Part shown: positions 2,429-63,694 of the stretch, piece after piece
Position numbering within the stretch: the first letter of the stretch is position 1
How the letters are laid out: every line of letters begins with the position of its first letter
Virus record (IMG/VR): IMGVR_UViG_3300035698_028218
Span: 7,745 to 71,744 of that record
Source: a virus
Direction: 5' to 3' (one strand)
Length of the DNA stretch: 64,000 bases
Translations under genes and position numbers: made by a program
The notes under the pieces: model-generated
Told to the model about the DNA's origin: nothing
The model's database searches: none
The model's input: only the letters and a program-made list of their open reading frames with translations

Positions 2429-2673
2429 TTAGTTTTCTTATAAATACGATTAGGTATTTTTTACATAAAAAAAAAATAGTTCTATCCCCTGACACAATTC
2501 ATTGTAACTTATACTGATTAAGTTATTGATTCTTTTTTTCATAGAGAAAAAGAATTATGCTTTTATGCTGTGGCTTAAAGTTCATTAATATTGTTTGAAA
2601 TAACCTAGAATACGTAGTATTTTAGTGTTATAAGTATTACTGAAATGAATGTTATTGTGCTAACTGGTGAGTC

Positions 2674-7372: not shown

Positions 7373-7791
7373 GTGAATTTAATGACGATAATTTTATGGA
7401 TGATGAGGAGATGAGTAGTTTTCTAGAAAATCTATGGGAGAGATTAACCAAAGAGGGAAAAATGGATAGAATTGAGAATTTACAAGAGGAGTTATATGAT
7501 CTAATTGGTCACCCTATTGAAATAAATATTCTATTAGATCAGTTTGTTGAGAAATATAAGATGGATACTGGTTTAGTCCCAGCCAATGCATTTTTTAATG
7601 AAGAGATAATCGGTGACCCAATTACTGTTGGAGAATTGGTTGATAAACTTAGCATGGAAGAAGATAATAGAATAATAGCAATAGACCCAATATATCTTAA
7701 AGATGGATTAAATCTTATTGATGATATGCTACTTATCGACAGTGAAGACAGCTTAATAATAGTACCAAAAAAAATTAAAGAAAATGAGTAA
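7369..7791 (+). CDS. Hypothetical acidic protein
   Basis: 140 aa ORF, ATGA-coupled to neighbours. Confidence 0.7.
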   Translation: MSEFNDDNFMDDEEMSSFLENLWERLTKEGKMDRIENLQEELYDLIGHPIEINILLDQFVEKYKMDTGLVPANAFFNEEIIGDPITVGELVDKLSMEEDNRIIAIDPIYLKDGLNLIDDMLLIDSEDSLIIVPKKIKENE

Positions 7792-31525: not shown

Positions 31526-33025
31526 TTATTCATAATAAAAAAAATAATTTCCTTTATTTTTTGACTTACCTGAACACCTTCTGGATATCGTTGATTGACT
31601 TTCAGCTAGGAATTTAGAGGCTTCAGACGTACTGTCGTATATTGCAATACACTCTCCTTGGGGTGTTTTAACTAAAACCCTTTTACATATTGCTCTTTTT
31701 TGTTCATCAGATAATCCCATCTCCAGTTTAGTTTTTGAAATCTTATTTTTGGTTATCTCTGATCTATTTTTACCTTCCCAATATTTTGGTGACACCTTAC
31801 TTAAATGTTCTTTTTCTTCTTCTGTTTTTAATCTACCATATTTTTTTGCTTCCTCAGACCCCTTCTTTGATATTCTATTGCTAATCCAAGTTTCAGATTG
31901 TTTAGTGCCTTGTAATCTATTTGATAGTGCTAGTCTTTGTGTTATTGATGGGCTTGAATTTTTACCACCAACTTCTAGGTTATAACCCAACTCTCTATTT
32001 GTGGAGTCATAAGTTTCTATATATTCAATCTCTTTCTTATTTAGATCATAAATATTTGGTGCATTATCAATTATTTCAAATATAAAATTGTTAAAACCAT
32101 ATTTATTAAATGCACTTTGTAGGTATTTATTATTAAGAACACCTCTTTTTGCCGAACTTTTATATTCATAAATTCTTTTATTGAGGGGTCTAGAAGTTTG
32201 ACCAATATAAACCTTAGAATTAATCTTATTTTTAATTCTATAAATAAAACCGTAGATGGGTTTTTGATTCTCTCCAATTAATAATTCATATTTTATTTTA
32301 CCACAATCCCAAATTTTTATGAGTTTTGAAATGAATTCAGAATATTGCTCATTAGATAAATTTTTTGTCTTTTTATATTTTGTGCCATAAGTAATTCTAT
32401 GATTAGTTTTATTTAGTTCTGGGTTATACCACTTAAAATCAGGTGGTAGTGTATTAATTCTCTTAAAATTATTTTTCTCATATATGTTACTATCTGACAC
32501 ATATTTTAAATCAGCAAAACTAATTACTGAGGTTGGTTTATATAATTCTATAAAATTTTTGAGGATTTTAGAAAAAATTCCAGTAATAATTTTACCTGAT
32601 TTTATTGAAAATCTAGATAATTCATATTGATTTTTTTTAAGTGAGCCATTTACACCTCTTTTTTCATTAAAGTTCATAACCCCAATAAGCTCATCGTTAT
32701 AATAAGCACCAAATCTTATGTTTGACTTATCTGAACCTTGGATGTGATTTTCATTTAAGAAAATATTTACCTCATCATTAGATGCATATTTTATTATACA
32801 TTTTCTTGCATATATAATTTCTTGATTACTAAATTTGAGTTTATTTAGTTTATCTTTTATTAGTTTTTTAGATGACTTAACATCAAAGTAATTATATATT
32901 ATTACTGACTCAAATTTACTTGAGTAAACTAGTTTTATTTTCTTTAAGTCTGATTTTTCTAAATTTATTGTTTCTTTGTAGTTTAAAAAAAGAACAATTG
33001 TATTATTAAATTTAAATTCCTTCAT
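31526..33025 (-). CDS. GIY-YIG homing endonuclease with N-terminal Hef-associated domain and NUMOD-like C-terminus
   Basis: YGFIYRIKNKINSKVYIGQT..R..E..GYN; N-half ARKC..FLNENHIQG..ELSRF..SFAD..IWDCG; basic C-terminal repeats and HTH-like end. Confidence 0.8.
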   Translation of the reverse strand: MKEFKFNNTIVLFLNYKETINLEKSDLKKIKLVYSSKFESVIIYNYFDVKSSKKLIKDKLNKLKFSNQEIIYARKCIIKYASNDEVNIFLNENHIQGSDKSNIRFGAYYNDELIGVMNFNEKRGVNGSLKKNQYELSRFSIKSGKIITGIFSKILKNFIELYKPTSVISFADLKYVSDSNIYEKNNFKRINTLPPDFKWYNPELNKTNHRITYGTKYKKTKNLSNEQYSEFISKLIKIWDCGKIKYELLIGENQKPIYGFIYRIKNKINSKVYIGQTSRPLNKRIYEYKSSAKRGVLNNKYLQSAFNKYGFNNFIFEIIDNAPNIYDLNKKEIEYIETYDSTNRELGYNLEVGGKNSSPSITQRLALSNRLQGTKQSETWISNRISKKGSEEAKKYGRLKTEEEKEHLSKVSPKYWEGKNRSEITKNKISKTKLEMGLSDEQKRAICKRVLVKTPQGECIAIYDSTSEASKFLAESQSTISRRCSGKSKNKGNYFFYYE

Positions 33026-56031: not shown

Positions 56032-56718
56032 ATGAAAATATATTCAAATTTTAGAGACTATTATGATAGTGCATCTGCATTCGGTATTGATGAAACTATC
56101 CATTACAAAAGAAAGAAGCAAGAAATTAACATCGATAGAAATCAATATAGGTCATTCCCATCTCTTAATAAGTATGATGTTATTGGTTTTTGTGGTGAAA
56201 TTTACCCGTTCTTAAACCCTCGGTCATTAAAAATTCCCAATAAAAAAGAAAATACACTATTTGGTGATGATGCAATAATGTATACAGTCAATGATAAACA
56301 AATATTTTCATTTGGAGATTATTCTTTCGATGAAATTTTTGAGAAAGATAAGAACCAAAATTCGTGGTTTAGTAATGTAACATCACAAGAAACATATAAC
56401 ACATTAAAAATTAGTCAATCTCTAAAGAATTTGTTTGTGGAATTTAAAACACCAATCTTTTTTCTTAGTGGGTATAAGAAATTAATAATTAACCCCAATC
56501 TAGGTGATTTACATTTTTATAAAGTAAAAGATTCGGTAATGACATTTTCTGAGATTAGTCAATTCTTAAGTGGTGTGTTATCTATGGATGTTGAAATCGA
56601 TACTCCTGTTGGTGGTAATGAGGTTGTTGGAAGAAGTAAGGGGTTCGATGAGAACTCTTTCAGAAAGGAACCAACAAAGGACACTAAAGTAAGAAGAAAA
56701 AGAAAAAATAAAATATGA
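56032..56718 (+). CDS. Hypothetical phage protein
   Basis: MKIYSNFRDYYD..IGFCGEIYP..INPNL..GFDENSFR. Confidence 0.75.
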   Translation: MKIYSNFRDYYDSASAFGIDETIHYKRKKQEINIDRNQYRSFPSLNKYDVIGFCGEIYPFLNPRSLKIPNKKENTLFGDDAIMYTVNDKQIFSFGDYSFDEIFEKDKNQNSWFSNVTSQETYNTLKISQSLKNLFVEFKTPIFFLSGYKKLIINPNLGDLHFYKVKDSVMTFSEISQFLSGVLSMDVEIDTPVGGNEVVGRSKGFDENSFRKEPTKDTKVRRKRKNKI

Positions 56719-56755
56719 GTATTAGTGGTCACTTTAAAGATGACTTAGAATTATT

Positions 56756-56805
56756 GTGAACTACCCACCCACACTACGTGATGAGTGGGCTTTACGCTCA
56801 CTTTT
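56756..56805 (-). mobile_element. Single-hairpin IS200/IS605 miniature (PATE-like) element
   Basis: GTGAACTACCCACC shared with the IS end at 62493; minus strand TTAC|AAAAGTGAGCGT-AAAG-hairpin-TAGTTCAC. Confidence 0.7.
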
Positions 56806-56827
56806 GTAAATAAAAATTAATGCAGTA

Positions 56828-57151
56828 ATGAGTATATATAGAGTAAAGTTAATTGGTGAAGAAGGGGACATTGAACCAGTCATCAATAAACATAGTATTG
56901 TAATTCAAACTAAATGGAATGGTCTTAAAATGATGGATCACGCTACGTTTGATTTGTGGAATAGACTATTTATATTTCCAGATAACGAAAAGGCAGAATA
57001 CTTTTCTGAGAACTTTAAACATGACATGAACGACTTCAGAGAGGGTATGATGAAGGATGATTATGTTTTTCATATTGTTAATTTTAAATATCCACAAAAA
57101 GAAGAGCTATATGCTGATCAAATGCGAATGACTAAGGATTATAAATATTAA
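56828..57151 (+). CDS. Hypothetical protein
   Basis: 107 aa ORF. Confidence 0.65.
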   Translation: MSIYRVKLIGEEGDIEPVINKHSIVIQTKWNGLKMMDHATFDLWNRLFIFPDNEKAEYFSENFKHDMNDFREGMMKDDYVFHIVNFKYPQKEELYADQMRMTKDYKY

Positions 57152-57244
57152 ATGTGATATGAGTGAACAAAGACGTTATTGGTCATTTGATGAATGTTGT
57201 CAACATATGGTTTGTGGTAGATAATTAGAATTAATATTAACTAG

Positions 57245-57330
57245 ATGGTCTGGTGGGACTCGAACCCACAAGAGCGATGTGCTCATCAGAATCAAAACCT
57301 GACGTGTTTAGCCAATTCCACCACAGACCA
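57245..57330 (-). tRNA. tRNA-Gln(UUG) with long variable arm
   Basis: Acceptor TGGTCTG/CAGACCA; anticodon arm TCAGG-TTTTGAT-TCTGA; variable arm GAGC-ACATC-GCTC; T arm GTGGG-TTCGAGT-CCCAC. Confidence 0.85.
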
Positions 57331-57456
57331 TTGTTTAAATAAAAGTTGTTCCTACAAAAGTTCTCTACTACTAAGGCAAGTCCTCCATTTGGGGTTCCGT
57401 TAACTACTTTATGAGTTTATAACCCCTGACGGAACAAGCAAGGTAACTATTATTTT

Positions 57457-57537
57457 GGCAGGCAGTTGGACTTGAACCAACGTAACTAGTATACGCCAAC
57501 AACCAACCCCCAGCTTCGGGAGAATTTGTTTACCTGC
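57457..57537 (-). ncRNA. tRNA-like RNA without a clear anticodon arm
   Basis: Acceptor GCAGGTA/TGCCTGC and T arm GTTGG-TTCAAGT-CCAAC; atypical interior. Confidence 0.6.
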
Positions 57538-57542
57538 ATTTG

Positions 57543-57602
57543 GGTATAAGACGAGGAACGAACTCGCATCTACAGAGACCACAACTCTAAGCTACTTACA
57601 CC
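57543..57602 (-). tRNA. D-armless tRNA-His(GUG)-like RNA
   Basis: GGTGTAAG-TAGCT-TAGAG-TTGTGGT-CTCTG-TAGAT-GCGAG-TTCGTTC-CTCGT-CTTATACC (60 nt, G-1:C73). Confidence 0.65.
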
Positions 57603-57611
57603 ATATATTTG

Positions 57612-57684
57612 ATGCTCTATTCAGAATCGAACTGAATTTTTTCGGATCAAAACCGAACGTAATAAACCACTATACGATAGAGCA
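57612..57684 (-). tRNA. tRNA-Gln(UUG)
   Basis: TGCTCTA/TAGAGCA; TTCGG-TTTTGAT-CCGAA; TTCAG-TTCGATT-CTGAA. Confidence 0.9.
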
Positions 57685-57714
57685 ATATAAATAAGTCTCT
57701 CATATAGAGACATC

Positions 57715-57790
57715 TGGGGTGTCAACGGGGATCGAACCCTGTTCTCTCGATTCACAGTCAAGCGTAATAACCTGTTATACTTTTGACACC
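57715..57790 (-). tRNA. tRNA-His(GUG)
   Basis: G-1; GTGTCAA/TTGACAC, C73 and encoded CCA; CTTGA-CTGTGAA-TCGAG. Confidence 0.9.
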
Positions 57791-57832
57791 ATTTTAAAAA
57801 AATATTATCACATTGTGTTTCCACTAACTTTG

Positions 57833-57905
57833 TCGGGTATGCCAGATTTGAACTGTATCTCGTAGACCCAAACTACGCATGTTACCTGATTACACCACAT
57901 CCCCG
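57833..57905 (-). tRNA. tRNA-Pro(UGG), apparent 8/4 fold
   Basis: CGGGGATG/CATACCCG; CGTAG-TTTGGGT-CTACG; short T stem ACAG-TTCAAAT-CTGG. Confidence 0.8.
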
Positions 57906-57919
57906 ATATTTTCTAAAAT

Positions 57920-57937
57920 CAATATTTCAAATAACTT
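57920..57937 (-). promoter_or_regulatory. boxA-like antitermination motif
   Basis: AAGTTATTTGAAATATTG, 15/18 identical to 60819-60836. Confidence 0.55.
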
Positions 57938-57942
57938 TATTG

Positions 57943-58016
57943 TCTAAGTGGTGAGAGTCGAACTCACAATAACCCTCCTTCCAAGGGAGGTAACCATGCC
58001 AGTGGATCACACCTAG
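57943..58016 (-). tRNA. tRNA-Pro(UGG)
   Basis: CTAGGTG/CACTTAG A73; CCTCC-CTTGGAA-GGAGG; GTGAG-TTCGACT-CTCAC. Confidence 0.85.
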
Positions 58017-58027
58017 TTTTTGGACAT

Positions 58028-58057
58028 AAAAAAACCCATTCATTACTGAACGGGTTT
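58028..58057 (-). terminator. Attenuator terminator of array 1
   Basis: AAACCCGTTCA-GTAA-TGAATGGG-T7, between leader ORF and first tRNA. Confidence 0.9.
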
Positions 58058-58086
58058 AGCTATATTTTATTAAGTTTTATTCCTTA

Positions 58087-58173
58087 TTAAATATGCATAG
58101 TTTCCCCGTTCAACATTCTTTGCGGATGCTGTGCTTGGGGTTGATGTGCGATATTTAATAAAACTGTTTTCAT
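58087..58173 (-). CDS. His/Gln/Pro-rich leader peptide (28 aa) of array 1
   Basis: MKTVLLNIAHQPQAQHPQRMLNGETMHI*; contains TGAACGGG complementary to terminator 5' arm. Confidence 0.85.
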   Translation of the reverse strand: MKTVLLNIAHQPQAQHPQRMLNGETMHI

Positions 58174-58194
58174 TACTTTAATTTTCTTCTTTTG

Positions 58195-58225
58195 CAAACC
58201 TACAACAATATTTGAGGTTTCCAAA
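58195..58225 (-). promoter_or_regulatory. Bacteroidetes sigma70 promoter of array 1
   Basis: TTTG-N19-TAGGTTTG, exact consensus. Confidence 0.85.
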
Positions 58226-58321
58226 ACTTTTTTTTACAAAAAGCAATAATTTTTACTACTTCACCAATAAATACGTTAAAAAAACTAATTTGTTTAAAAA
58301 AGTTTAGTATTTATTTTTAAA

Positions 58322-58699
58322 ATGGATGATTTAGATTTTTGGAACATAGATAAAGAAAGAAAAGAGAGAATTCCTTTAGACATTATTAATACTAAAGAAT
58401 TTCAAGTAAAATTTATCGTTGATCTATTAAATGATTCCCCCTCTATTGTTAGTCGTGAATCTATTGAGACCCATAGACAAAACGACATATACACCAGTGA
58501 TATGACCATACTAAAGGTTTTTAATATTGAGTATTCATATGAAAAAATATTAATTCCAATTGATATTGTTGTGGTGACTGACGAAGGTAAAAATGATTTT
58601 AATCTAAAGTTTTCTACCATAGAAAATAAAGACATTGATTTTGGCTGGATAGATAAAAATATTGCGTTAGAAAAAAAAGTTTTGAATTCTCTTATATAG
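58322..58699 (+). CDS. Hypothetical protein
   Basis: 125 aa; GTATTTAT at 58307. Confidence 0.65.
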   Translation: MDDLDFWNIDKERKERIPLDIINTKEFQVKFIVDLLNDSPSIVSRESIETHRQNDIYTSDMTILKVFNIEYSYEKILIPIDIVVVTDEGKNDFNLKFSTIENKDIDFGWIDKNIALEKKVLNSLI

Positions 58700-58715
58700 T
58701 TACTATCTTTACTAG

Positions 58716-58973
58716 ATGAATAATGATAATTATGAATTGGTGAATGTGGGGGTTAGTAAAAATTCAAATTCATTCAATGTAACTACGAATGGTGGTGCAT
58801 TATTTAGTATTAAATCAAAGTATGATTTACATCTTCAATGGAAACCCAAGCCTAATATTACTACTTTTGAATTAGCACAATCAATCCCATATATTTTTAT
58901 GGGAGAAGTTGAATCTTCATCAATAGACCAAAATGAAAAATTTTGGAGAAACTTTAATATAACACCAAGATGA
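58716..58973 (+). CDS. Hypothetical protein
   Basis: 85 aa, WKPKPNITTFELA. Confidence 0.65.
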   Translation: MNNDNYELVNVGVSKNSNSFNVTTNGGALFSIKSKYDLHLQWKPKPNITTFELAQSIPYIFMGEVESSSIDQNEKFWRNFNITPR

Positions 58974-59377
58974 AGATTTTTTTAGACGACTATAGAATCC
59001 CCTTAGATGCGTGGATGTATATGAAAGAAAAACAATATCAAGATAGGGATTGGGTGATTGTTAAGAATTACGATGAATTTGTAAGACTACTAAATATGAC
59101 TAAACCAGAAAATATCGAGAGAATTTCTTTTGATCATGATTTAGCACCTGAACACTATGCCCCAAAAGAACATTGGATTAATTATGATGCTTGGGAAGCT
59201 ACACAAGACTTTGAATTTAAAACAGGTTTAGATTGTTGTGATTACTTCATAGAGTATATGAAAAAAAACAATATTAAAACCCTGCCTAAATATTCTTGTC
59301 ATTCAAAAAATATTGGAAGAAGAATAAGAATTTTACATCAATTAACTCACTATAGAAATGGGAGCACCGAAATTTAA
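58970..59377 (+). CDS. Cyclic-phosphate-processing receiver-domain protein
   Basis: KIFLDDYRIP, WVIVKNYDEF, ISFDHDL, KTGLDCC, HSKN. Confidence 0.8.
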   Translation: MKIFLDDYRIPLDAWMYMKEKQYQDRDWVIVKNYDEFVRLLNMTKPENIERISFDHDLAPEHYAPKEHWINYDAWEATQDFEFKTGLDCCDYFIEYMKKNNIKTLPKYSCHSKNIGRRIRILHQLTHYRNGSTEI

Positions 59378-59636
59378 ATTAAAAGAAAATATATTAACTA
59401 TCACATATGACTTTAATGAGGTTTATTTGGAAACATTATTACTTGTTAAGTCAAATAATGGTATTGTGGAGTTTATTAATAGAGAAGAATTCACATCTGA
59501 CATCGATCATTTAGAATTAAGTTGGGTAATATGTGATGAGCTTGTTAGTATGGGTCTTTTATTTGAAGACTTAGAAGCTATGAATGTCACATATGAATTA
59601 ACCAAAGAAAGTGAAGACTTAATAAATAGTATATAA
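59358..59636 (+). CDS. Hypothetical protein
   Basis: 92 aa ORF. Confidence 0.6.
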   Translation: MGAPKFKLKENILTITYDFNEVYLETLLLVKSNNGIVEFINREEFTSDIDHLELSWVICDELVSMGLLFEDLEAMNVTYELTKESEDLINSI

Positions 59637-59862
59637 GGAGCAGGTATATGGTACAACGAGAAAGAACCATATGAAGGCACCACAGACATATTAAGGAAGG
59701 TAGGTGCCATTTGTATACAAATGGGAGAGCAATACTCAATGACAGAAAGAAAGTTCCTTGAGAAGCAAATATTAGGGTGAAAAAAATTTAAAAACCTAAT
59801 CCTCTGTAAATCAAAGTGTTGGGTTTTTATTAGACTTTTTTTTAAAAAAATAAAAACATTTA

Positions 59863-59893
59863 CTTGTTCTTTGCGTATTTAGTTGTAGGTTTG
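59863..59893 (+). promoter_or_regulatory. Bacteroidetes sigma70 promoter of array 2
   Basis: CTTG-N19-TAGGTTTG; shares GTTGTAGGTTTGCA and AGAAAATTAAA with array 1 leader region. Confidence 0.85.
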
Positions 59894-59924
59894 CATAAGC
59901 AAATACAAAAAACAGAAAATTAAA

Positions 59925-60053
59925 ATGAAAAATTTATTCGACATCTTATTAAACACCTTAGAAGCGTTAGCTAACGTGGTGCTAGATGCAGTCCTTATGG
60001 ATGATGCTGAATGGGATAGGAATGGGTTTTCTAAAATAGATGATGTGAGTTAA
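59925..60053 (+). CDS. Ala/Leu/Asp/Glu/Val/Trp-rich leader peptide (42 aa) of array 2
   Basis: MKNLFDILLNTLEALANVVLDAVLMDDAEWDRNGFSKIDDVS*; GGGTTTTCTA (60024-60033) complementary to TAGAAAACCT (60073-60082). Confidence 0.85.
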   Translation: MKNLFDILLNTLEALANVVLDAVLMDDAEWDRNGFSKIDDVS

Positions 60054-60075
60054 AAACTTAAATAATCGAAACTAG

Positions 60076-60107
60076 AAAACCTGATCCGAAAGAATCAGGT
60101 TTTTTTT
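60076..60107 (+). terminator. Attenuator terminator of array 2
   Basis: AAAACCTGATCC-GAAA-GAATCAGG-T8. Confidence 0.9.
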
Positions 60108-60126
60108 GTTTATAGGGGTTTAAGTT

Positions 60127-60441
60127 ATGTCACAAAGAAAAAAACAAATAAGAGAGAAATTCAGAAATGATGTCTTCTCTAGAGATAATCACAGATGTAA
60201 GGTTTGTGAAGAAGATAGTGAAAAATTAGATGCTCATCATATCACCGATAGAAATGAGATGCCGAATGGAGGTTATGTAAGTGAGAATGGAATCTCATTA
60301 TGTGAACCATGTCACGAAAAAGCAGAAGTTTGGCATTCAAGTTTAAAAGATGATTTTGTAGATGGGTATCAACCAAATGATTTATATGTGTTAATAAATA
60401 GTAATTATGATTTAGCACATAAAAAATCAGAGCAATTATAA
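60127..60441 (+). CDS. HNH endonuclease
   Basis: VFSRDNHRCKVC..LDAHHI..ENGISLCEPCHEKAE. Confidence 0.9.
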   Translation: MSQRKKQIREKFRNDVFSRDNHRCKVCEEDSEKLDAHHITDRNEMPNGGYVSENGISLCEPCHEKAEVWHSSLKDDFVDGYQPNDLYVLINSNYDLAHKKSEQL

Positions 60442-60555
60442 TTGAGAATGTACTGTGGTGACATAGTACCTCCAACCAGTAAAGAAGTACCACTTACGGA
60501 GTTACCTAAGTTCGCAGGGGAGTAAGGAAGTTGGTCTGGGTGATATGTCTCAATT
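60440..60555 (+). ncRNA. Unidentified structured RNA
   Basis: Closing stem AATTGAGA/TCTCAATT, hairpin GTACTGTG-GTGA-CATAGTAC, CCAAC/GTTGG, CTTAC/GTAAG. Confidence 0.45.
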
Positions 60556-60559
60556 AAAT

Positions 60560-60634
60560 GGGGGTGTAGCAAGTGTTGGCTATTGCAACTGCTTTGCAAG
60601 CAGTAGATCGTGGGTTCAATTCCCATCACTTCCA
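60560..60634 (+). tRNA. tRNA-Ala(UGC)
   Basis: GGGGGTG/CACTTCC with G3:U70, A73; ACTGC-TTTGCAA-GCAGT. Confidence 0.9.
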
Positions 60635-60729
60635 CTGGCTTGGGTTATATGAATCCAAGTAAAAATAGAAAGTTGGGATTATGGTTTGTCTGTACCACCA
60701 GTACCGTTATAAAGGTAACAGACGCAAAC

Positions 60730-60809
60730 GCCTCTGTGGTTAATGCAAATTGGTACAGCTACTGGTTTTAGAAACCAGACCCTTGTAGGTTCGAATCCTA
60801 TTAGAGGTA
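60730..60809 (+). tRNA. tRNA-Leu(UAG) lacking long variable arm
   Basis: GCCTCTG/TAGAGGT A73; CTGGT-TTTAGAA-ACCAG; GTAGG-TTCGAAT-CCTAT; enlarged D region. Confidence 0.8.
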
Positions 60810-60818
60810 CAAAGAAAT

Positions 60819-60836
60819 AAGTTCATTGAAATGTTG
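60819..60836 (+). promoter_or_regulatory. boxA-like antitermination motif
   Basis: AAGTTCATTGAAATGTTG, resembles Bacteroidetes rRNA-operon boxA as recalled. Confidence 0.55.
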
Positions 60837-60860
60837 GTAATAAAGTAATTAAAATACGAA

Positions 60861-61041
60861 ATCTTGAAGCGAAAGGCAAAAGAAACATTGAGTGGGTTAG
60901 ATGCCCAACAGGTTCTAGATATTGAAAACTGGTCAGTAAATTAAATAAGTAGGTGTATTAGTAGCGAACGCTCATTAACCAAAAGAGAGTAGGCACATTA
61001 AACCTTAATCCCTGCGCACTGGTTCGATTCCAGTCAAGATA
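60861..61041 (+). ncRNA. Long tRNA-like RNA (~180 nt)
   Basis: ATCTTG/CAAGAT closing stem stacked on T arm ACTGG-TTCGATT-CCAGT. Confidence 0.55.
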
Positions 61042-61062
61042 AAGTTAGAATGTGTAATTTTT

Positions 61063-61133
61063 GGAGGGCGTAGTGTAACGGTAGCATGTGTCACTGTCTA
61101 TGACAAGGAGGGGTTCGAATCCCACGCTTTCTG
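61063..61133 (+). tRNA. tRNA-Asp(GUC), apparent 8/4 fold
   Basis: GGAGGGCG/CGCTTTCT G73; TGTCA-CTGTCTA-TGACA; GGGG-TTCGAAT-CCCA. Confidence 0.8.
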
Positions 61134-61143
61134 CTAAATAAAT

Positions 61144-61217
61144 AAGAATGAGGTGTGTACTAGCATTTTCTGTATGTCACGCAGATAGGTTTAGGGTGAA
61201 ATTCCTTTACGTTCTTA
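61144..61217 (+). tRNA. Degenerate tRNA-Asp(GUC)-like RNA
   Basis: AAGAATG/CGTTCTT; TCTGT-ATGTCAC-GCAGA; non-canonical T loop. Confidence 0.55.
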
Positions 61218-61223
61218 TTAAAT

Positions 61224-61299
61224 GGAGTGTTGGTCTAGTTTGGCTTAGGATGTCCCCCTGTCACGGGGAAGGTCACGGGTTCAAATCCCGTACATTCCG
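61224..61299 (+). tRNA. tRNA-Asp(GUC)
   Basis: GGAGTGT/ACATTCC G73; TCCCC-CTGTCAC-GGGGA; ACGGG-TTCAAAT-CCCGT. Confidence 0.95.
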
Positions 61300-61378
61300 C
61301 AATACTACTCCCTCTAGCGAAAACTAGTGAAATAATATAACTACATATATCACTGGTTATATTATGTGGGAGAATTTT

Positions 61379-61499
61379 GGAAGTATTCCTTTGTAAAGTA
61401 TGAGCTTAAAGCAGAATACGGGATAAATCAAGGCGTTGATTAAATTCTAGGAGTAACGAGGTGAAAATGCATTTGTTGGTTCGAGTCCAACTACTTCCG
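61379..61499 (+). ncRNA. Expanded tRNA-like RNA (121 nt)
   Basis: GGAAGTA/TACTTCC G; T arm GTTGG-TTCGAGT-CCAAC; interior hairpins including AATCAA-GGCG-TTGATT. Confidence 0.65.
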
Positions 61500-61511
61500 C
61501 AAATAATACAC

Positions 61512-61584
61512 ACATCATAGCATAACGGTATGCAGCAGGTCTCCAAAACCTCGCATAGACAGGGTTCGATTCCTTGATGGTGTG
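61512..61584 (+). tRNA. tRNA-Trp(CCA)
   Basis: ACATCAT/ATGGTGT G73; AGGT-CTCCAAA-ACCT; CAGGG-TTCGATT-CCTTG. Confidence 0.8.
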
Positions 61585-61585
61585 C

Positions 61586-61761
61586 AAAGGGGGTGTCTAA
61601 TGATAAAATCTTGTCATATAACAGGTATAGTCGTTTTTAGATATCAAAAACCATGTAGATTTGGCGTGGGATATGGGTCGGGGTAGGTACCCGAAATTGT
61701 TCTTCAAATCGGAACACTAGTAAGAAAACTCCATATATGAGTATATTTAAAACACCCTTTT
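61586..61761 (+). ncRNA. Unidentified multi-hairpin RNA
   Basis: Closing stem AAGGGGGTGT/ACACCCTTTT enclosing TCGGG/CCCGA, TGTTC/GAACA, ACTC/GAGT and GTTTTT/AAAAAC hairpins. Confidence 0.5.
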
Positions 61762-61765
61762 ATTT

Positions 61766-61837
61766 ATTCCGTTCGTCTAACGGCAAGGACATTGGATTTT
61801 CAATCCAGAAATAGGGGTTCGATTCCCCTACGGAGGA
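61766..61837 (+). tRNA. tRNA-Glu(UUC)
   Basis: TTGGA-TTTTCAA-TCCAG; AGGGG-TTCGATT-CCCCT; acceptor ATTCCGT/ACGGAGG. Confidence 0.9.
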
Positions 61838-61852
61838 CAATATTTAAATATT

Positions 61853-61923
61853 GGAGATTAACTCAACTGGAAGAGTGCTTCCGTTACATGGAAGAAGTTG
61901 TGGGTTCGAATCCCTCATCTCCA
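61853..61923 (+). tRNA. tRNA-Val(UAC)
   Basis: GGAGAT/ATCTCC A73; CTTCC-GTTACAT-GGAAG; GGG-TTCGAAT-CCC. Confidence 0.85.
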
Positions 61924-61929
61924 ACACAT

Positions 61930-62061
61930 GCTGTAATGAAGTAGAGTGAACTTAAATGGATTGTACAGTCCTATTAAGGAATCTATCAGTCTAAGAGACA
62001 ATTGGCGTTAGCTACTTATAATGTTGTACAATATTCTAGGGTTCAAGTCCCCAATATGGCA
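61930..62061 (+). ncRNA. Expanded tRNA-like RNA (~130 nt)
   Basis: GCTGTA/TATGGC A; T arm GGG-TTCAAGT-CCC; anticodon arm replaced by ATTGTACA/TGTACAAT stem with sub-hairpins. Confidence 0.55.
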
Positions 62062-62066
62062 CAAAT

Positions 62067-62138
62067 TCTCCGTTCGTCTAGGGGTCAGGACACTGGGTTT
62101 TCATCTCAGCAACAGGGGTTCGATTCCCCTACGGAGGA
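62067..62138 (+). tRNA. tRNA-Glu(UUC)
   Basis: TCTCCGT/ACGGAGG; CTGGG-TTTTCAT-CTCAG; 3' part identical to 61766 copy. Confidence 0.92.
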
Positions 62139-62148
62139 CAATATTTAA

Positions 62149-62460
62149 ACATCTATTAATTTTATTAAAAAACCTAATCACCAATATTCATATACCTTAA
62201 CACTATCTAGTGGTGAGGTAGGTGATGAAATTAGAGACTGGATTAATGGTCTTTTCACTAAGATAACATGTGGTGTGGATTCATTGGAAGAACTAATGGA
62301 TTTATATAACAAGGCGAAGGAAATGAATTTACCTGTCTCTTTAATTGAAGATGCTGGGTTAACGGAATTTAATGGTGAAAAAACAATCACCGCAATTGCA
62401 ATTGGTGCAGCGTCTTCCGAAAGAATAGATAAATTAACAAAAAATTTAAAGTTACTTTAA
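62149..62460 (+). pseudogene. 5'-truncated peptidyl-tRNA hydrolase Pth2
   Basis: Open frame ..WINGLFTKITCGVDSLEEL..LIEDAGLTEF..TITAIAIG..IDKLTKNLKLL; N-terminal VRxDL..GK..AQ..HA motif absent, stop at 62146. Confidence 0.75.
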
Positions 62461-62497
62461 CCAACGTTCAATAGAAATTGAAAAATTAGTTAGTGAA

Positions 62498-63694
62498 CTA
62501 CCCACCTACACCAAGAGGTGATAGATGGGCTTCGGGTTTCACAGGATGTGCATTGCTAACAATGTCTGATTTTTCCTCCACCTTTGTAATGGCAAGTTCC
62601 TCACCATATATTTTTAATCCTTCTTTTAGAATATTGATACTTGCGTTTAAATCACGGTCTAATTTATGACCATTTTTGCAAGTCCATTCTCTATCTGAAA
62701 GGTTTAAATCTTGATTTATATATCCACAAACATTGCAAGTTTTTGATGAAGGATACCAACGATTAATCTTAACAACAGTTTTATCGTTCCAATTTGCCTT
62801 GTATTCAACAAATCGAACAAATGTACCCCAACTTGCATCTGCAATATGTTTAGATAGTTTTCTATTTTTAATCATTCCTTTGATATTCAAATCTTCAAGG
62901 CAAATTATATCATAATTAGATACAATATCGTTACTCACTTTATGTAATACATCTTGTCTTGTGTTTGCTATTTTCTCGTGAATTAAGGCAACTTTACGTT
63001 TTTGTTTTTCAAACATATTGCTACCTTTTGTTTTACGAGAAAGATGTTGTTGTGCTTTTTTTAATTGTCTTTCATATCTTTTTGTGTATCTATTGTTTTT
63101 GTATTTAATTCCATCAGAAGTGATTGCAAAGTCTTTAATTCCTAAATCTATTCCTATCGTTTTACCAGTTTTTTTGCTTGGTACATATTCTTGTTCAGTT
63201 AAAATGGAAACGAAATATTTACCTGTTGGTGTTTTAGATATTGTGAATTTACCTATTTCACCTTTAACTTCTCTATGAATATTTACTTTAATACCACCCT
63301 TGAACTTTGGTGCATATATTCTATCATTAACTACTTTAGTATGTTGCGGTACTGTAAACGTATTCTTTTTACGTTTAGATTTAAACTTTGGAAACATTGC
63401 ATTTCCACGAAAGAAATTAACATAAGCAGTATCTAAACTTCTTAAAGCAAATTGCAAAGTTTGAGAATTAACTTCTTTTAACCAAATAGTATCTTCTTTT
63501 TTCTTTAGTTCAGTTAAAGTTTTTGCTTGTCCGTAATAATTATCAGTTTTTTTATCTGCTTGATATTGTTCCTTTCTTTCGTTTAAAAAGTGATTGTAAA
63601 TATATCTAACACAACCGAAGTGCTTATCCAATAAGGTTTTCTGTTCCTCATTAGGTAGTAATTCAAATTTATATGACCTATGTATATTCTTCAC
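62498..63694 (-). CDS. tnpB: TnpB RNA-guided endonuclease
   Basis: HFGCVRYIYN HTH, GIDLGIK (RuvC-I), LEDL (II), SSKTCNVCG zinc finger, DRDLNAS (III). Confidence 0.95.
   Translation of the reverse strand: MKNIHRSYKFELLPNEEQKTLLDKHFGCVRYIYNHFLNERKEQYQADKKTDNYYGQAKTLTELKKKEDTIWLKEVNSQTLQFALRSLDTAYVNFFRGNAMFPKFKSKRKKNTFTVPQHTKVVNDRIYAPKFKGGIKVNIHREVKGEIGKFTISKTPTGKYFVSILTEQEYVPSKKTGKTIGIDLGIKDFAITSDGIKYKNNRYTKRYERQLKKAQQHLSRKTKGSNMFEKQKRKVALIHEKIANTRQDVLHKVSNDIVSNYDIICLEDLNIKGMIKNRKLSKHIADASWGTFVRFVEYKANWNDKTVVKINRWYPSSKTCNVCGYINQDLNLSDREWTCKNGHKLDRDLNASINILKEGLKIYGEELAITKVEEKSDIVSNAHPVKPEAHLSPLGVGG

Follow-up and report, generated by a model that had tools for sequence, protein, structure and literature searches.

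How are the transfer RNA (tRNA) genes of phages controlled, and why do some phages carry dozens of them? Both questions are raised by a locus in a 64,000-nucleotide (nt) stretch of viral DNA, positions 7,745 to 71,744 of the IMG/VR record IMGVR_UViG_3300035698_028218 (the whole stretch is hereafter called the window, and position 1 is its first letter). On the minus strand of the window, a short leader open reading frame (ORF) and an intrinsic terminator precede a tRNA array (array 1), and the leader contains a run of His, Gln and Pro codons. With a probability of roughly 80%, this unit, as modelled, would be a ribosome-mediated (leader-peptide) transcription attenuator gating the phage tRNA array. 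The in silico basis for this reading consists of the anatomy of the unit, the mutual exclusion of two helices, a rule that relates ribosome position to folding, covariation, and a correspondence between leaders and arrays in related phages.

An earlier note on this DNA had placed the leader at 58173-58087 and had read codons 10-18 as CAT CAA CCC CAA GCA CAG CAT CCG CAA; the coordinates and the codons were confirmed (Table 1). Only one of the 127,948 nine-residue segments obtained from the six frames of the whole 64 kb has at least eight His, Pro or Gln residues, and that segment is the run in the leader. These three amino acids together represent 7.2% of the residues in the long ORFs of the window. 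The synonymous codons of the leader are unusual, as the note had stated. CCC and CCG account for 8.1% and 3.7% of the Pro codons in 43 long ORFs of the window, respectively, and CAG accounts for 20% of the Gln codons; both Pro codons of the leader are therefore the two rarest Pro codons of the window. Since eight of the nine codons in the run specify His, Gln or Pro, and the array encodes two tRNA-Pro, one tRNA-His, one tRNA-Gln and one Gln-like tRNA, the leader appears to test the codons that the array serves. Homologues of the leader ORF are found at the same position in eight related phage records.

The terminator hairpin (58057-58032) has a perfect stem of 11 pairs, a loop of four nt and a predicted energy of -13.9 kcal/mol. 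It is located 30 nt past the stop codon (measured to the 10-pair stem from the automatic scan), with an AU-rich spacer between them. Only 12 nt separate its T-run from the first tRNA gene, which leaves no room for a separate tRNA promoter. Hairpin 1 is predicted within the leader, where CCCC of the codon run (58140-58137) pairs with GGGG of the antiterminator arm (58107-58104), enclosed by an outer AU helix running across the stop codon. Its predicted energy in isolation is -22.8 kcal/mol, and that of its inner part is -11.3 kcal/mol. The two strings that the earlier note had proposed as an antiterminator, TGAACGGG (58112-58105) and its complement CCCGTTCA (58054-58047), are both present in place, and the extension CTATG/TATAG was found at 58100-58096 and 58064-58060. 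The antiterminator duplex, composed of TTGAACGGG (58113-58105) with CCCGTTCAG (58054-58046; 8-9 base pairs) and CTATG/TATAG, has a predicted energy of -16.8 kcal/mol. Between the ORF and the 5' arm of the terminator, the most stable duplex has -13.8 kcal/mol, compared with -6.2 ± 1.8 kcal/mol in dinucleotide shuffles, none of which (0/300) reaches this value. Competition of the antiterminator with the terminator 3' arm TGAATGGG was also borne out: the two helices share the strand 58057-58047 and are mutually exclusive in silico.

The free leader folds into two hairpins, hairpin 1 and the terminator (z = -3.6), and none of 200 shuffles folds as well. Ribosome footprints were applied to a transcript cut at the terminator loop, which represents the state at the decision, before the 3' arm is available. 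In the cut transcript without a ribosome, region 2 (the antiterminator 5' arm) is held by hairpin 1 and region 3 (the terminator 5' arm) is unpaired, so that the terminator can form. Placing the A site at codons 8-17 makes 58112-58105 the partner of region 3; only five antiterminator pairs are left with the A site at codon 18, and none at codons 19-28. The claim that a ribosome stalled at codons 10-17 would free the antiterminator is in agreement with this modelled range.

In the proposed mechanism, transcription would begin near 58190, and a ribosome would translate the 28-codon leader as RNA polymerase advances, which presupposes that transcription and translation are coupled in the host. 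When His, Gln or Pro aminoacyl-tRNA is scarce, the ribosome would linger at codons 10-17 and melt hairpin 1, leaving region 2 free to pair with region 3 on the emergence of the latter. Given a kinetic advantage, the antiterminator would block the terminator stem, and the polymerase would read into the genes for tRNA-Pro, tRNA-Pro, tRNA-His, tRNA-Gln and the Gln-like tRNA. During fast decoding, the ribosome would cover the antiterminator arm (codons 19-28) or hairpin 1 would re-form behind it; the terminator would then form and transcription would end 12 nt ahead of the first tRNA. Hairpin 1 would likewise lead to termination if the leader were not translated. Because the product of the operon would be the molecule that is sensed, the supply of exactly these tRNAs would be under negative feedback, and because the array tRNAs would speed up the same His, Gln and Pro codons, the loop would be self-limiting. 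Production of these tRNAs by the phage is probably limited to times at which the supply to the ribosomes is insufficient. Leader-peptide attenuation has been reported as likely in a Flavobacterium (PMC9723704).

Correspondence between leaders and arrays was examined in related jumbo T4-like phages. The leaders are too diverged for a DNA search and were therefore located via tRNA arrays, which were found with the Rfam tRNA model, after which the upstream regions were read. A blastn search of 57000-59000 against the phage collection gave no match, and when the unit was compared by blastn with five relatives, the matches were confined to pieces of tRNA. Of the neighbouring proteins used as anchors, two found no relatives and one led to seven distant loci, none with tRNAs. 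In a hand-picked set of 17 units, each ATG-started frame ends 14-39 nt before the terminator, and the leaders match their own arrays better than in any of 50000 within-genome permutations; for this set, His was added to the window array from Rfam and Tyr was added to one array of relative G001 by reading. In an automatic scan of 12 records, a unit was accepted if an ATG-started ORF with 15-60 codons stopped 3-60 nt ahead of a hairpin (-8 kcal/mol or better), if a T-run of five or more was present, and if tRNAs lay no further than 1.3 kb away. For each array the closest such unit was retained, and ARAGORN calls only were used, which yielded 34 arrays from 11 records.

In these 34 units, leader residues match the amino acids of the array at 483 of 1039 positions, compared with 251 expected. 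The summed -log10 p is 95.0, whereas within-genome permutations average 31.1 and do not exceed 71.0 (0/50000 reach the observed value). The match is frame-specific, with the +1 and +2 frames giving 186 and 201 matches, respectively. Four classes recur, namely Pro/His/Gln, Asp/Glu/Val/Ala/Trp/Leu, Lys/Tyr and Thr/Cys/Asn/Ile/Ser/Phe/Gly/Arg, and a fifth class (Thr/Arg/Ile) was found in G001 only. Correct assignment of leaders also holds within genomes that contain four to five classes. In G024, which shares 55% capsid identity, the tRNAs are regrouped and the two leaders follow the new groupings. A degenerate DNA pattern for the Lys/Tyr leader detected 23 viral loci (three of them in records already studied) with 14 distinct peptides. 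Lys and Tyr tRNAs come next at 21 of the 23 loci, 65-225 nt after the stop codon; one of the remaining matches is at a locus end and the other is outside any ORF. A tblastn search of the phage collection with a Lys/Tyr leader returned no match.

The antiterminator was compared across units. In 27 of the 34, the complementarity of an ORF segment to the terminator 5' arm exceeds that in at least 95% of 300 dinucleotide shuffles. When nine Pro/His/Gln leaders were aligned, 86% of the cells of the antiterminator helix pair, and four of the seven pairs show compensatory changes on both sides. For example, G001 and G005 have C-G, U-A and U-A where the window has A-U, A-U and C-G. Covariation scores 0.336, compared with 0.121 in shuffled alignments (0/500 as high), and sliding the partner gives no more than 0.131. 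RNAalifold returns the antiterminator helix as the consensus with the alignment alone as input. The antiterminator is conserved as pairing, not as sequence. The footprint test revealed an antiterminator-permissive block in 32 of the 34 units, with at least three further codons after the block in 31. Without a ribosome, nine units, including that of the window, have at most one antiterminator pair, and 20 form the antiterminator by default. The latter would, on the folding model, rely on masking of the arm, which overlaps the stop codon in several of them.

Some of the results weigh against this reading of the unit. Folding with ribosome footprints, proposed in the earlier note as a check, gives the predicted switch on the cut transcript but does not discriminate on full-length RNA. 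At equilibrium of the full-length RNA, the terminator is the minimum free energy (MFE) structure at all tested footprint positions but one, so the model depends on co-transcriptional kinetics and not on thermodynamics alone. The claim that a ribosome nearing the stop codon masks the antiterminator stands for codons 19-28 and fails at the stop codon itself (codon 29), where the ribosome uncovers the arm and the truncated fold pairs it again; for termination, hairpin 1 would therefore need to re-form first, behind the ribosome. The CCC codon of the leader is not decoded by the UGG anticodon under plain wobble, codon 14 specifies Ala, whose tRNA is in array 2, and in all units together, G:U/U:G rules leave 101 of the 483 matched codons without an array tRNA. 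The codon run ends within two codons of the end of the permissive block in only 13 of 32 units (median -1), and the automatic run end is imprecise where a leader matches many amino acids.

The number of independent observations is also smaller than the number of units. The 34 units share ancestry and are not 34 independent events, and the independent support amounts to about five array classes plus the re-assorted G024. Eight of the 34 are weak (binomial p 0.14 to 1.0), mostly because arrays are cut by the locus or contig or because ARAGORN missed tRNAs. In the clade, a unit is present within 200 nt of 21 of the 30 arrays of at least three tRNAs and of 9 of the 32 arrays of one or two tRNAs. 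The other nine larger arrays have no unit within this distance; in several of them, an inserted ORF separates the array from its unit or from the preceding array. In two more distant records, G017 and G022 (52-53% capsid identity), no unit was found in seven arrays. A 51-codon ORF precedes three tRNAs in Flavobacterium phage immuto (32% capsid identity), but no hairpin with a T-run was seen there on reading. The tRNAs of LR756508 are mostly scattered.

Stalling cannot separate a missing tRNA from a missing amino acid, and the unit might accordingly report general translation capacity or amino-acid starvation, or its logic might be inverted, with fast translation giving read-through. Exposure of the arm at the stop codon in the unit of the window and the default antiterminator of 20 of the 34 units, in which untranslated RNA would read through, both fit such an explanation. 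It is nevertheless unlikely. The composition of the leaders tracks the arrays class by class, in G024 as well and in the reading frame only, which would be superfluous for a general sensor, and in 31 of 34 units the antiterminator is allowed before the end of the codon run and masked after it, which is the classical polarity. Still less likely, the ORF would be a normal small gene that has a terminator of its own, or the unit would be a transcriptional insulator. The tRNAs would then be expressed via constitutive leaky read-through, or the terminator would just be weak, and the His/Gln/Pro run would be a property of a small peptide that has a separate function. The N-termini of the leaders are similar across classes, which could indicate a peptide function, and terminator-like hairpins are common in this region (10 in 56500-63000 vs 3.2 ± 1.7 in shuffles). 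This explanation leaves unaccounted for a peptide composition that changes with the downstream tRNAs, the complementarity of an ORF segment to the arm of the terminator in 27 of 34 units, with its covariation, and a promoter that is immediately followed by a terminator of -13.9 kcal/mol placed 12 nt before the genes.

The least probable alternative, and a very improbable one, is an RNA switch independent of translation (T-box-like, or a leader bound by a protein or a tRNA) that chooses between the helices. Two mutually exclusive helices would suffice for it, and tRNA-sensing leaders exist (T-box). However, the signal is frame-specific and each unit has an ATG-started open frame, while one leader would need to recognize 3 to 10 different tRNAs. 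Moreover, a search of 57000-58400 at expectation values (E) up to 10 yielded no Rfam family at or above its threshold and no T-box match. The best leader-type matches in this search, PyrR (23.7 bits vs 54) and Leu_leader (22 bits vs 50), lie mainly over the terminator, and no curated amino-acid leader other than Leu_leader was listed. Ribosome-mediated attenuation of the tRNA array is accordingly retained as the preferred reading.

Elements that could start transcription of the unit were also identified. The candidate sigma-A promoter is followed by an A-rich 17-nt 5' untranslated region, and the transcription start near 58190 is predicted from it. Its -7 box fits the flavobacterial sigma-A consensus, TAnnTTTG at -12 to -5, given in PMC9723704. 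The pattern precedes both leaders of the window and most leaders in the relatives; with four occurrences in the whole window vs 2.31 expected, it shows no overall enrichment. A scan for sigma-70 promoters was uninformative (27 sites vs 28.8 expected). Another motif, CGTATTTA, has six matches in the window vs 2.29 expected (2/100 shuffles reach six), with one copy ahead of each of the two leaders, and in the relatives nGTATTTA occurs no more than 130 nt upstream of most leader ORFs. A second promoter, specific to the phage, may be formed by (C)GTATTTA, which is present in the window at 58268-58275 (-), 59874-59881 (+) and 2441-2448 (-), and upstream of leaders in loci L109-L126. (C)GTATTTA and the TAnnTTTG box co-occur before most leaders, in varying order and at varying spacing.

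Table 1. Coordinates of the attenuator unit, the tRNA arrays and associated features (window positions unless a locus is named)
Feature	Position	Strand	Basis or remark
Upstream motif CGTATTTA	58268-58275	-	Possible second (phage-specific?) promoter element; function putative
Candidate Bacteroidota sigma-A promoter: TTG, 19 nt, -7 box TAGGTTTG (58202-58195)	58195-58224	-	Pattern match
Leader ORF, 28 codons + TAA (MKTVLLNIAHQPQAQHPQRMLNGETMHI)	58087-58173	-	ATG start; second in-frame TAA follows
Putative regulatory codon run, codons 10-18, HQPQAQHPQ	58120-58146	-	8/9 His/Gln/Pro
Hairpin 1 (putative anti-antiterminator, possibly pause hairpin)	58082-58163	-	MFE structures
Antiterminator 5' arm (region 2): TTGAACGGG 58113-58105 + CTATG 58100-58096	58096-58113	-	
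Intrinsic terminator + shared arm, including TATAG 58064-58060	58028-58064	-	Terminator scan
Terminator 5' arm AAACCCGTTCA (region 3)	58057-58047	-	Also antiterminator 3' arm
Terminator loop GTAA	58046-58043	-	
Terminator 3' arm (region 4)	58042-58032	-	Holds TGAATGGG, 58042-58035
T-run, seven T	58034-58028	-	
tRNA-Pro(UGG), first gene	57942-58016	-	ARAGORN only; 12 nt after T-run
tRNA-Pro(UGG)	57832-57905	-	ARAGORN + Rfam
tRNA-His(GUG) with G-1	57718-57790	-	Rfam only, 46.5 bits; ARAGORN makes no call
tRNA-Gln(UUG)	57611-57684	-	ARAGORN + Rfam
87-nt tRNA, UUG anticodon, long variable arm (Gln-like, type-II shape)	57244-57330	-	52 bits; last in array
Sister unit ahead of tRNA array 2	59864-60113	+	
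Array 2 candidate promoter, -7 box TAGGTTTG	59864-59893	+	Box identical to that of array 1
Array 2 leader, 42 codons	59925-60053	+	Rich in Asp/Ala/Val/Glu/Trp
Array 2 antiterminator arm GGTTTTCT	60025-60032	+	Complementary to AGAAAACC of the terminator, 60074-81
Array 2 terminator	60074-60105 + T8	+	
HNH endonuclease ORF	60127-60441	+	Between array 2 terminator and first tRNA
Array 2 tRNAs: Ala, Asp, Asp, Trp, Glu, Val, Glu + two doubtful calls	from 60560	+	
Suppressor-like tRNA loci in relatives	L110 12908-12982; L112 1672-1746; L114 16501-16573; L125 near 19292		

Not all tRNA genes of array 1 are of a standard type. The first tRNA-Pro gene is considered atypical because the Rfam tRNA model stays below threshold there. 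Other tRNAs called by ARAGORN and below the Rfam threshold, besides that at 57942-58016 (-), are at 60730-60810 (+) and 61512-61585 (+), and one of the three has the odd anticodon ACU. The anticodon loop of the tRNA-His, CUGUGAA, was taken from the Rfam alignment. In the 87-nt Gln-like tRNA the acceptor end is U1-A72, and the variable arm is long, a shape usual for Leu, Ser or Tyr tRNAs; a counterpart of 87 nt with the same anticodon call was found in relative G002 (L109 3498-3584). The 280-nt gap between the last two tRNAs (57331-57610, minus strand) contains two stretches with acceptor-like and T-arm-like pairings by eye. No tRNA was called in this gap by ARAGORN or by Rfam at E up to 10, and the two stretches may be decayed or unusual tRNA genes.

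A sister unit with the same order of promoter, leader, antiterminator arm and terminator precedes array 2 on the plus strand (Table 1). An HNH endonuclease ORF is inserted between its terminator and its first tRNA, and the same kind of insertion is present at the same place in G024 (L130). Leaders of different classes, including those of the distant G024, start alike, with N-termini resembling Met-Lys-Asn-Leu-Leu-x-Ile, which suggests that the units arose by duplication and that only the codon run was re-written. The arrays are sorted roughly by the first codon letter, with C for Pro/His/Gln and G for Asp/Glu/Val/Ala. Single tRNAs with a CUA anticodon occur in the relatives G001, G002 and G016, and G002 also has one with a UCA anticodon. 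These suppressor-like tRNAs hint at stop-codon reassignment in part of the clade. With table 11, the ORFs of the window read normally.

The window, with a G+C content of about 30%, covers part of a viral record whose completeness is estimated at 20%. It encodes a T4-type capsid protein, a portal, a terminase and a sheath. The capsid protein is 70-80% identical to those of IMG/VR records of 180-357 kb, and the nearest isolates by capsid are Flavobacterium phages, with about 32% identity. The -7 box fits the flavobacterial sigma-A consensus (PMC9723704), and a Bacteroidota host appears likely. The region 57200-58330 is identical, where covered, in contigs of several salt-lake metagenome DNA runs, which is a hint to habitat only. 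The contigs of four DNA runs that were compared with the window show no variants, and no RNA run was listed among those carrying the sequence. Beside the capsid gene, a 499-residue ORF with a GIY-YIG nuclease domain (31526-33025, minus strand) is probably another homing endonuclease.

No leader-peptide attenuator before tRNA genes was found described in the full-text literature searched, a search beyond whose reach most subscription journals lay. The unit quite likely represents classical attenuation with a new target (tRNA genes) and a closed feedback logic. The evidence leans, less firmly, towards a broader statement, namely that tRNA genes are organized as demand-sensing regulons throughout this clade of jumbo T4-like phages. 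In such regulons, array-specific leaders, made of the codons decoded by their arrays, would measure the speed of ribosomes for each codon class, and only tRNAs in short supply would be topped up. If this is true, these would be the first tRNA genes under leader-peptide attenuation, and leader-peptide attenuation would reach a new target class, viruses and, probably, a Bacteroidota setting. The leaders would also provide a direct read-out of the purpose of phage tRNAs. With a sensor composed of the codons that the downstream tRNAs read, tRNA supply would be regulated by demand, in a closed loop without a protein factor, and the sorting of tRNAs into fixed groups in these phages would be accounted for. 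The shortage that is sensed may arise from a mismatch of codon usage, from decay of host tRNAs in infection or from host anticodon nucleases. The composition of a leader predicts the tRNAs that follow, including those missed by tRNA finders, and could aid annotation. The unit of about 170 nt also offers a simple, portable test object for codon-specific tRNA shortage in cells.

The tRNA clusters of T4-like and other large phages, as commonly described, and the leaderless arrays of G017, G022 and immuto resemble those studied here in being tRNA arrays of T4-like genomes with homing endonuclease ORFs among them, but they are preceded by plain promoters or ordinary genes instead of a unit of leader ORF and terminator. 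T-box leaders share with the present unit a choice between antiterminator and terminator that is tied to tRNA status and placed upstream of translation-related genes. A T-box, however, binds one uncharged tRNA directly and needs no translation, whereas the signal here lies in the reading frame. The amino-acid operon leaders of enterobacteria (trp, his, phe, leu, thr and ilv) are the classical leader-peptide attenuators, and the likeness to them includes a short ORF with a cluster of sensed codons, a predicted alternation of 1:2, 2:3 and 3:4 helices, an intrinsic terminator before the first regulated gene, and a stall that would free the antiterminator. Leaders for several amino acids, as found here, also occur in thr and ilv. 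Unlike the enterobacterial leaders, the present element is encoded by a phage, regulates tRNA genes and not biosynthetic enzymes, and has an output that would act directly on the pool that is sensed. It shows no similarity to them in sequence or in model searches, its leaders would sense as many as about 10 amino acids, and many units have no 1:2 helix. The pheST operon, in which the pheM leader attenuates phenylalanyl-tRNA synthetase, is likewise a case of leader-peptide attenuation of a translation component that serves the sensed codons. It concerns one synthetase and one amino acid in a cellular genome, whereas the units described here would control whole viral tRNA arrays.

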